Shown: positions 1,112 to 1,150 of the stretch, in pieces | Layout: each line of letters starts with the position of its first letter | How positions within the stretch are numbered: the stretch's first letter is position 1 | Sequence record: MG748547 | From: Escherichia phage EP75 | Length of the DNA: 64,000 bases | Direction: 5' to 3' (one strand) | Made by a program: the position numbers and the translations under genes | The notes under the pieces: generated by a model | The model's input: only the letters and a program-made list of their open reading frames with translations | Database searches by the model: none | Told to the model about the DNA's origin: nothing

Positions 1112-1150
1112 CTTCAATAATGGTGATCATAGGGTATAATCTCTATGATC
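1112..1150 (+). promoter_or_regulatory. Promoter cassette: CTTCAATAA box plus TATAAT in a hairpin loop
   Basis: Box 1112-1120, TATAAT 1135-1140. 8-bp stem GATCATAG (1125-1132) / CTATGATC (1143-1150). Confidence 0.6.

Follow-up and report, generated by a model that had tools for sequence, protein, structure and literature searches.

A conserved box at fixed spacing from a sigma70-type -10 element forms putative prereplicative promoter cassettes in Ackermannviridae phages

The 64,000-nucleotide (nt) stretch of Escherichia phage EP75 analysed here (record MG748547, all of which we refer to as the window) holds near its start a short intergenic element at 1113-1150 (+), in which an A+T-rich box, TTCAATAA (1113-1120), is followed 14 nt later by the hexamer TATAAT (1135-1140), and cassettes of the same build recur along the window on both strands. 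They raise two questions: how would a -10 element that has this box in place of a usable -35 be read, and what is the inverted repeat around the -10 for? The first 8 kb of the window share 96-98% identity with Salmonella Kuttervirus genomes (LPST94, PhiSH19, Det7 and CBA120-type phages) and, several indels excepted, the window is collinear with LPST94 at 33.8-98 kb; it is a genome segment of a Kuttervirus, a genus of the Ackermannviridae formerly described as ViI-like. Kutter et al. (2011, PMC3184105) report that phages of this type encode neither MotA and AsiA nor Alt and ModA, and that informatics failed to locate their early and middle promoters; in AG3, Anany et al. (2011, PMC3121705) found just eight sigma70-like promoters. 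A plain sigma70 consensus scan over 16 kb agrees with these original genome papers, as matches were not enriched (29 versus 27.1 expected). The cassettes, by contrast, stand out clearly, and from their sequence and conservation we consider them probable prereplicative promoters, middle-like or possibly delayed-early, of an Ackermannviridae phage.

The sites and every coordinate given in a preliminary description of this DNA proved correct, whereas the 9-mer core that it proposed did not hold, the leading C before TTCAATAA being present at only three of the six forward sites; the conserved core is the 8-mer TTCAATAA. In the window CTTCAATAA is matched eight times against 0.81 expected, TTCAATAA-N12-TAWWAT occurs five times and the inverse pattern YTATTGAA-N11-TATNAT three times, each against 0.00 expected (100 shuffles for the former). 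Exact 8-mer boxes fall in noncoding DNA in 13 of 20 cases, although the DNA outside our own gene calls makes up 10.1% of the window (binomial P = 5e-9), and composition-matched, first-order Markov resampling of the same noncoding segments yields 0.49 where 13 are observed. The lack of intergenic enrichment that had been named beforehand as evidence against a regulatory box is therefore not what the window holds, and the seven intragenic copies of the 8-mer have no -10 at the class spacing. All strong sites are followed on the same strand by a start codon 18-51 nt downstream, and the genes served are of replication or early type (DNA ligase, rIIA and small open-reading frames (ORFs) beside the polymerase and primase-helicase genes); no strong box site precedes a structural gene in the window. 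We found no published statement of the box consensus in the literature searched, although the 2012 genus paper on 'Viunalikevirus' may hold an earlier description. The abstract of that paper reportedly mentions 'conserved regulatory sequences', so a prior account of the motif is conceivable. The GenBank record of LIMEstone1, whose authors overlap with those of the genus paper, leaves the box sites unannotated save one, which is labelled 'putative middle promoter' and is the orthologue of the element at 1834-1896 described below. A scan of IMG/VR for exact TTCAATAA-N12-TATAAT was uninformative, those among the matches listed being mostly single and scattered.

We read the anatomy of the cassettes from a -10-anchored alignment of 42 sites, taken from the window and from four further genera. 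Two classes emerge: in the forward class tTtnTTCAATAAa lies at -36 to -24, then N12 and TATAAT, and in the inverted class TyTATTGAAnaa lies at -32 to -20, then N11 and TATAAT (the 11 nt counted from the 8-mer CTATTGAA are the same as the 10 nt first reported, which were counted from the 9-mer). Both are degenerate forms of a single 13-bp pseudo-palindrome, TTTATT(C/G)AATAAA, and their well-conserved 8-mers nearly coincide, to within 1 bp. The spacing is sharp, with the forward box at N12 in 15 of 31 sites over spacers of 4-21 and the inverted box peaking at N11/N12 (the window and the same four genera). The -10 elements of the strong sites are TATAAT, TATTAT, TATCAT or TATACT, sigma70-type and near the consensus TAtaAT, and A-11 and T-7 are invariant in 20 of 20 forward and 12 of 12 inverted sites. 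The aligned sites have no TG extension at -15/-14, and an extended -10 reading was rejected on that ground; nor did we find a TTGACA-like hexamer 16-18 bp from the -10, the match being at most 3/6 at most sites. The box itself cannot be a sigma70 -35, as had been argued from its spacing, since the distance to the -10 is 14 bp for TTCAAT and 10 bp for the inverted TTGAAx; that candidate was likewise dropped. The box instead has the geometry of MotA boxes in T4, with its end 11-12 bp 5' of a -10 that lacks a -35. Of the dimeric activator near -30 suggested earlier, the position near -30 stands, whilst the dimer is conjecture and a simple symmetric dimer does not explain a dyad that shifts by 3-4 bp between the classes.

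The cassettes extend well beyond the window. We compared syntenic regions of Klebsiella phage 0507-KN2-1 (Taipeivirus, hereafter KN2), Enterobacter phage EspM4VN (Agtrevirus), Dickeya phages JA15 and LIMEstone1 (Limestonevirus), Erwinia phage Bue1 (Nezavisimistyvirus) and Serratia phage phiMAM1 (Miltonvirus), genera whose DNA is about 70% or less identical to the window. Box, spacing and -10 are kept at orthologous positions in all five genera whilst the letters of the spacer diverge, so that the observation holds for six genera of the family. The use of the box in both orientations, noted at the outset, is conserved across genera as well: the inverted class stays inverted before the ligase gene and at the orthologues of the sites at 14240 and 19672, and at the ligase promoter the orientation is swapped between lineages, with a forward box in Bue1 and the metagenomic relative L168 and an inverted box in the others. 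This swap is the strongest evidence for a functional equivalence of the two orientations.

Six forward sites carry the box TTCAATAA. The cassette at 1113-1150, the start codon of which is at 1175, is kept in five genera with spacings of N12-14, and its 10-bp hairpin (1125-1150) has the -10 as its exact loop and no U-run after it. At 5287-5331 (+) a hairpin, GGGGTTC-TTCG-GAACCCC (5287-5304), abuts the box (5306-5313), N12 and TATAAT (5326-5331), a -10 that has no hairpin around it; the start codon is at 5359, and this cassette is not conserved 5' of the orthologous gene in other genera. On the minus strand, the cassette at 34580-34621 combines the box (34614-34621), N12 and TATTAT (34596-34601) with a 16-bp hairpin (34580-34615) and TTTTT, an intrinsic terminator by prediction, and is kept in Agtrevirus and Taipeivirus; the true start codon of its gene is likely at 34565, a Pfam DUF7231 match beginning at residue 5 of the longer ORF. 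The similar cassette at 37704-37745 (-) holds the box at 37738-37745, N12 and TATTAT at 37720-37725, with the start codon at 37684, and its hairpin (37704-37739), which had been read as a terminator too, has a 16-bp stem followed by TTTCTTTT, in agreement with that reading. At 42330-42362 (-) the box (42355-42362), N12 and TATAAT (42337-42342) precede a start codon at 42302, the -10 being the exact loop of a 7-bp hairpin (42330-42349) with a weak U-rich tail; this cassette is kept in Agtrevirus and Taipeivirus. The last, at 55730-55763 (-), has the box at 55756-55763, N12, TATAAT at 55738-55743 and a start codon at 55701, with the -10 in the loop of a 6-bp hairpin (55730-55750) that has no U-run; its box and -10 are kept in Taipeivirus and Agtrevirus, its spacer and hairpin are not.

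Four sites belong to the inverted class. The DNA ligase cassette (3803-3851, +) has CTATTGAA at 3803-3810, N11, TATAAT at 3822-3827 and a start codon at 3854, with a 14-bp hairpin (3811-3851) that takes the Shine-Dalgarno (SD) sequence GGAG (3846-3849) into its 3' arm, and is kept in Taipeivirus, Agtrevirus, Limestonevirus and Serratia phage IME250. The cassette at 14203-14235 (-) has the box variant TTATTGAA (14228-14235), N12, TATACT (14210-14215), a 9-bp hairpin (14203-14225) followed by a U-rich tail and a start codon at 14181; it is kept in Agtrevirus, Limestonevirus and Taipeivirus. At 19641-19672 (-) the box CTATTGAA (19665-19672) and its flanks match the 13-bp palindrome at 12 of 13 positions, followed by N11, TATAAT (19648-19653) and a start codon at 19616; its 7-bp hairpin (19641-19658), which has no U-run, keeps its structure in Taipeivirus, Agtrevirus and Bue1 whilst the letters of the stem vary (GGCGG versus TGGGG). 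The rIIA cassette (32979-33023, -) begins with a terminator hairpin and TTTT (33006-33023) that runs into CTATTGAA at 32996-33003, then N11, TATCAT (32979-32984) and a start codon at 32927, and the orthologues in KN2 and EspM4VN read CAATTGAA-N11-TATCAT, again with a terminator in front.

Weaker candidates lie on the minus strand. At 50620-50671 the box variant TTCAATGA (50664-50671), N12 and TAAAAT (50646-50651) precede a start codon at 50604, with TAAAAT inside a long hairpin (50620-50663), and EspM4VN has TTCAACAA-N12-TAAAAT. At 52616-52641, just 3' of a tRNA-Met gene, TTCAATAA (52634-52641), N12 and TATCTT (52616-52621) stand before a doubtful ORF call; the KN2 orthologue reads TTCAATAA-N12-TATGAT. 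A further candidate at 54360-54385, in an ORF-free region next to tRNA genes, has ATCAATAA (54378-54385), N12 and TATAGT (54360-54365), for which KN2 and EspM4VN have GTCAATAA-N12-TATAGT with an 8-bp hairpin around the -10. The full palindrome TTTATTGAATAAA, which had been reported at two places, is exact at both (46271-46283 and 55116-55128). The copy at 55116-55128, 5' of a minus-strand 48-amino acid (aa) ORF and partly kept in EspM4VN, has no convincing -10 at the class spacing.

Two box sites that had been grouped with the others are built differently. At 1834-1896 (+) a terminator-like hairpin (1834-1851) is followed by a 16-nt unit, CTTTACTTCAATAAAA, the reported tandem duplication of which is real (1851-1866 and 1867-1882), with boxes at 1857-1864 and 1873-1880; at 46271-46312 (+) the palindrome is followed by a second box, TTCAATAA, at 46293-46300, and the start codon is at 46362. 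Neither 1873 nor 46293 is a promoter with its box near -30: both sit in the spacer of a canonical, sigma70-type (C/G)TTTAC-N17 promoter, TTTACT (1868-1873), N17 and TATCAT (1891-1896) at the former, and GTTTAC (46284-46289), N17 and TATACT (46307-46312) at the latter. At both (1868-1896 and 46284-46312) a further box or the full palindrome lies just 5' of the -35, an arrangement that looks like an operator. The phiMAM1 orthologue of the first reads TTCAATAA-N12-TATTAT, and phage bering has a repeat_region annotated at the place homologous to the tandem duplication. The 120 nt 5' of 46362 are almost identical in three genera, yet the 185-aa protein encoded behind them is only 67-83% identical. 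The wider regulatory region 46240-46361, which holds the palindrome, GTTTAC-N17-TATACT and the second box, shows almost 100% identity among Kuttervirus, Taipeivirus and Agtrevirus.

Turning to the inverted repeats, a stem of at least 5 bp with a loop that covers the -10 is present at eight of the 12 window sites, where seven had been claimed, and at 27 of 42 sites across genera (64%, against 17% in flank shuffles), with a mean hairpin free energy of -14.7 versus -6.9 kcal/mol in the shuffles. The loop is exactly TATAAT at 42337-42342, as had been seen, and also at 1135-1140. Across 11 distinct sequences the 10-bp helix at 1125-1150 is 98% paired, with substitutions of both partners at three pairs (A-U to G-C, G-C to A-U), a G·U that is fixed in all 11 and a second G·U that alternates with A-U. 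The 14-bp ligase helix is 97.6% paired in nine distinct sequences from five genera, all of its variation going via G·U; its covariation is not significant against shuffles, there being little variation, and what speaks for the helix is a slide control and the G·U pattern only. Because G·U is tolerated only in the sense-strand RNA, the hairpins would act at the RNA level, as terminator, mask of the ribosome-binding site (RBS) or insulator, rather than as a feature of the promoter DNA. With a U-run, the hairpins at 34580-34615, 37704-37739 and 14203-14225 are predicted intrinsic terminators; the ligase hairpin, with the -10 inside it and GGAG in its 3' arm, is a predicted RBS mask; the stems at 1125-1150, 19641-19658 and 55730-55750 have no U-run. 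At 5306 and 33003 the hairpin precedes the box, and a U-run follows that of 33003.

The cassettes are most likely factor-dependent, middle-like promoters with the geometry of a T4 MotA box. In the mechanism that we propose, host RNA polymerase with sigma70 would read the near-consensus -10, which has neither a usable -35 nor a TG, whilst the imperfectly palindromic box would occupy the -35/spacer region, centred at -30 in the form tTtnTTCAATAAa or at -26/-27 in the form TyTATTGAAnaa. A putative sequence-specific protein bound to the box would stand in for the -35 contact, as MotA and AsiA together do in T4; this protein would not be a MotA/AsiA homologue and is probably phage-encoded. Transcripts would start ~7 nt past the -10, and so begin in the loop or the 3' arm. 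The G+C-rich inverted repeat around the -10 would act in the RNA of read-through transcripts from the upstream gene: a hairpin with a U-run (34621, 37745 and 14240) would terminate them, the ligase hairpin would pair with and mask the SD sequence, and the U-less stems may serve in attenuation, processing or 3'-end protection. As transcripts from the embedded promoter lack the 5' arm, they would escape both termination and masking, and each 40-60-nt cassette would thereby insulate its gene from upstream transcription and restart it under box control. More tentatively, the box-binding protein may belong to an unrecognised Ackermannviridae activator or sigma-appropriation system, sequence-unrelated to MotA/AsiA, that reads the 13-bp TTTATT(C/G)AATAAA in two registers and drives the prereplicative programme, and the same putative activator may shut off the few canonical-type early promoters whose spacer contains the box (1873, 46293).

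Several points weigh against these promoters being activator-dependent and prereplicative. The starts of transcription, the factor that would bind the box, its role in activating rather than repressing and the timing are all inferred from the letters of the DNA; of the 42 cross-genus sites, many are orthologous to one another and hence not independent observations; and several hairpins have neither a U-run nor contact with the SD sequence. The dyad centre, at -30 in the forward and -26/-27 in the inverted class, moves by 3-4 bp, which is awkward for a single symmetric binder, and the box in the spacer of the canonical promoters at 1873 and 46293 fits an operator with a repressor at least as well as activation. 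The search for the factor points the same way. A MotA/AsiA-like pair had been proposed as a target; tblastn of T4 MotA and AsiA against 50,697 phage records (E up to 10) matched 1143 and 1173 records and, among the matches listed with recognisable taxonomy, returned T4-type phages only and no Ackermannviridae, with only 30 'Salmonella' phage records against 162-164 Salmonella Kuttervirus-type records. The small ORFs beside the gene 52 homologue, the place of motA in T4, have no similarity to MotA, and 35 window proteins scanned against Pfam and PHROG gave no MotA/AsiA family, so that of the proposed MotA-box logic the geometry stands and membership of the MotA/AsiA system, for which no sequence homologue was detected in any of these searches, does not; a structural analogue is nevertheless conceivable. 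The 185-aa product of 46362-46919, behind the box-rich, ultra-conserved promoter at 46293, was considered for the role of the factor; it has 44 homologues, and its AlphaFold model (predicted local distance difference test score 74, medium confidence) is rich in beta structure towards the N terminus and includes a disordered, acidic stretch, yet found no PDB fold match with E below 0.2. No candidate factor thus emerged from these searches.

A possible regulator gene was observed at 1520-1822 (+), the second gene 3' of the cassette at 1113-1150, which encodes a 100-aa protein of phrog_639 ('transcriptional regulator'); it has no Pfam or NCBIfam match past the curated cutoff and nothing links it to the box. 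We take this protein to resemble T4 DsbA, a double-stranded-DNA-binding protein of late transcription.

That host sigma70 holoenzyme alone might use the cassettes as immediate-early promoters, with no dedicated activator and the box serving as an A+T-rich bendable element or an odd -35 surrogate, perhaps with the hypermodified thymidines of ViI-type DNA, would account for the near-consensus -10, for the absence of an activator gene from our searches and for typical early genes such as rIIA among those served; the site at 42362 can also be read as TTGATT-N18-TATAAT, and the forward class is T-rich at -36 to -34. We nevertheless consider it unlikely, as an 8-bp core that is invariant across six genera at a fixed 12-bp (or 11-bp) spacing is tighter than a generic A+T-rich element, the TG is missing and the -35 surrogate reaches at most 3/6 at most sites, the box is used in both orientations as a -35 hexamer is not, and the phage has separate, canonical-type (C/G)TTTAC-N17 promoters. 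The same palindrome could instead be an operator, on which a dimeric repressor or timing switch of phage or host binds TTTATT(G/C)AATAAA and shuts promoters off, their basal activity coming from elsewhere. The two perfect 13-mers, the boxes in canonical spacers (1873, 46293) with another just 5' of the -35 (46271), a classic layout that is ultra-conserved, and the variable dyad centre, which steric repression would tolerate, all suit such a switch; it leaves unexplained how -35-less, non-extended -10 promoters would fire, and the sharp preference for N12 (15/31) is typical of an element in register with the polymerase, which steric blocking does not need, so as a general account of the cassettes we hold it to be quite unlikely.

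Two further explanations start from the repeats. If the hairpin worked in the DNA, an extruded repeat would show the -10 as a single-stranded loop in the style of phage N4 early promoters, and a -35 would be unneeded, which matches its absence and the -10 lying in the loop at most sites and forming it exactly at 1135-1140 and 42337-42342. The conserved G·U(T) pairs are on the sense strand, however, and would be A·C mismatches on the other DNA strand; larger loops and mismatched stems are known to extrude poorly as cruciforms, and we expect this of loops of 4-13 nt and mismatched stems of 6-16 bp; some good sites have no hairpin around the -10 (5306, 33003 and Bue1 35739); and the U-runs or SD pairing of several hairpins are RNA functions, all of which make extrusion highly improbable. 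The other explanation sees the repeats mainly as recombination modules or relics of module shuffling, their promoter look being secondary. There is precedent in the promoter-early stem-loop (PeSL) cassettes of T4-type phages, which had been invoked accurately in the preliminary description (PMC2839356, PMC4122927), and in one case the same cassette does precede unrelated ORFs in Kuttervirus and Taipeivirus: that at 37745 is kept in KN2 (L006:3528) with an unrelated ORF behind it. Several alignment gaps to LPST94 also lie near cassettes, for instance 16882-17148, which abuts a box-less cassette of terminator plus extended -10 at 17152-17223. Nothing beyond that single case of exchanged ORFs supports the modular role put forward earlier; most cassettes lie between conserved, syntenic genes, and recombination alone does not explain the fixed spacing of box and -10, the orientation towards the gene or the invariant A-11 and T-7, so we give it very little weight as the main function. 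The putative factor-dependent promoters remain the reading that we prefer.

Further observations concern the neighbourhood of the cassettes. The ORF behind the KN2 cassette (L006:3233-3528) is unannotated, encodes 77 aa and is unrelated to the window ORFs 37493-37684 and 37260-37481 that lie behind the same cassette. The window segments 11374-12103, 14597-14960, 16882-17148 and 22007-22483 are absent from, or unalignable with, the 97%-identical LPST94, and amongst their contents are the insertion of a 246-aa ORF ahead of the head completion gene and, immediately 3' of the terminator-promoter cassette at 17152-17223, a 98-aa ORF that has been replaced. The window as a whole encodes replication and nucleotide-metabolism genes (primase-helicase, ligase, helicase loader, topoisomerase II, rIIA/B and DNA polymerase), many small ORFs of unknown function, three tRNAs and two structural-gene blocks. 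About 3 kb around the three tRNA genes (51435-51917, 52002-52396 and 52734-54927) have no convincing ORF; ARAGORN and Rfam found nothing there besides the three tRNAs, whilst by eye there are tRNA-like stems and the one box-type candidate at 54360-54385, and this DNA may represent degenerate tRNAs or other small RNAs. At 26305-26391 (-) an extended -10 promoter, TGTATAAT, lies behind a terminator and in front of a 5' untranslated region (UTR) hairpin, GTTCCCCATGAGCGGAAC. The TG before this -10 is present in the window and JA15 only, other genera having CG or GG, and the hairpin is near-identical in five genera, 5' of a gene annotated 'histone-like' (25795-26304), for the product of which Pfam, the HU family included, gave no match at E up to 0.1.

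Structural genes carry a signal of their own. CTAAATAYC occurs five times against 0.95 expected, directly 5' of the structural genes checked (48038-48046 (-), 48517-48525 (-), 56017-56025 (+), 59879-59887 (+) and 63004-63012 (+)), and is probably a late, gp55-type promoter. That the box cassettes are late (gp55) promoters was rejected, as late genes carry CTAAATAYC instead. At 48493-48531, 59877-59922 and 62965-63043 the ATACCCC part of the motif pairs with GGGGTAT just before the start codon, and the late 5' UTRs would thus fold into a hairpin.

ViI-like phages see wide use in biocontrol and therapy, with Salmonella, E. coli O157 and Dickeya as targets, and a family-wide consensus with fixed geometry makes the acknowledged gap in their early and middle promoters (PMC3184105, PMC3121705) directly testable, giving a handle on early-gene switching, on the box-binding protein and on timed expression cassettes for engineered phages. 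Amongst known systems the closest in geometry are the T4 middle promoters, which likewise have a sigma70-type -10, no -35 and a box of ~8-9 bp that ends 12 +/- 1 bp before the -10 (near -30), and which serve replication and nucleotide-metabolism genes in a related genome. The boxes themselves are unrelated (TTCAATAA versus the MotA box (a/t)(a/t)(a/t)TGCTTtA), that of the window is pseudo-palindromic and used in both orientations where the MotA box has one, no MotA/AsiA homologue was detected and activation in the window is deduced from sequence; should the factor indeed be new, it would replace the sigma70 -35 contact by an independent route. Activation by lambda CII similarly places the site of a phage activator over the -35 region of promoters with a poor -35, with the difference that CII reads TTGC-N6-TTGC direct repeats that flank the -35, whereas the box is a single pseudo-palindrome nearer to the -10. 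The hairpin promoters of phage N4, read by a virion RNA polymerase, have a perfect stem of 5-7 bp and a 3-nt loop, unlike the hairpins found here, in which loops measure 4-13 nt and stems (6-16 bp) contain G·U(T) pairs.

The stem-loops have two counterparts in T4-type phages. One is the device of a promoter inside a hairpin that masks the RBS, which T4 is reported to use, with an internal promoter, at genes e, soc, 49 and I-TevI (McPheeters 1986, Macdonald 1984, Barth 1988 and Gott 1988). The 14-bp ligase hairpin, which pairs with the SD sequence and has the promoter -10 inside it, would be a second example, in which only internally started transcripts would have a free RBS; the internal promoters of T4 are late (gp55), whereas that of the window is of the box/sigma70 type, and clear SD pairing is seen at one cassette only. 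The other counterpart is the PeSL design, in which a promoter has a stem-loop either overlapping its -10 or placed in the interval from the upstream element to the -10 (Arbiol et al. 2010; Comeau et al. 2014; PMC2839356, PMC4122927), and of which cassettes, PeSL or promoter-middle stem-loops (PmSL), occur in RB49/phi1, T4/PST and KVP40/nt-1, the Mot-box version PmSL being that of nt-1 (PMC2839356, PMC4122927). PeSL cassettes have a -35 at N17 (TTGACA, TTTACW or TTGYVH) where the window has a box at N11-12, 1868-1896 and 46284-46312 excepted, and U-runs follow only some of the window stem-loops. Like them, the window cassettes are short and intergenic, pair a promoter with a G+C-rich stem-loop (seen at 27 of the 42 cross-genus sites and in 17% of shuffles), adjoin small ORFs of unknown function and have a stem-loop that is predicted to act on upstream transcription, and the PeSL idea of overlapping terminator and promoter would thereby extend from the Straboviridae to a second family with another upstream element.

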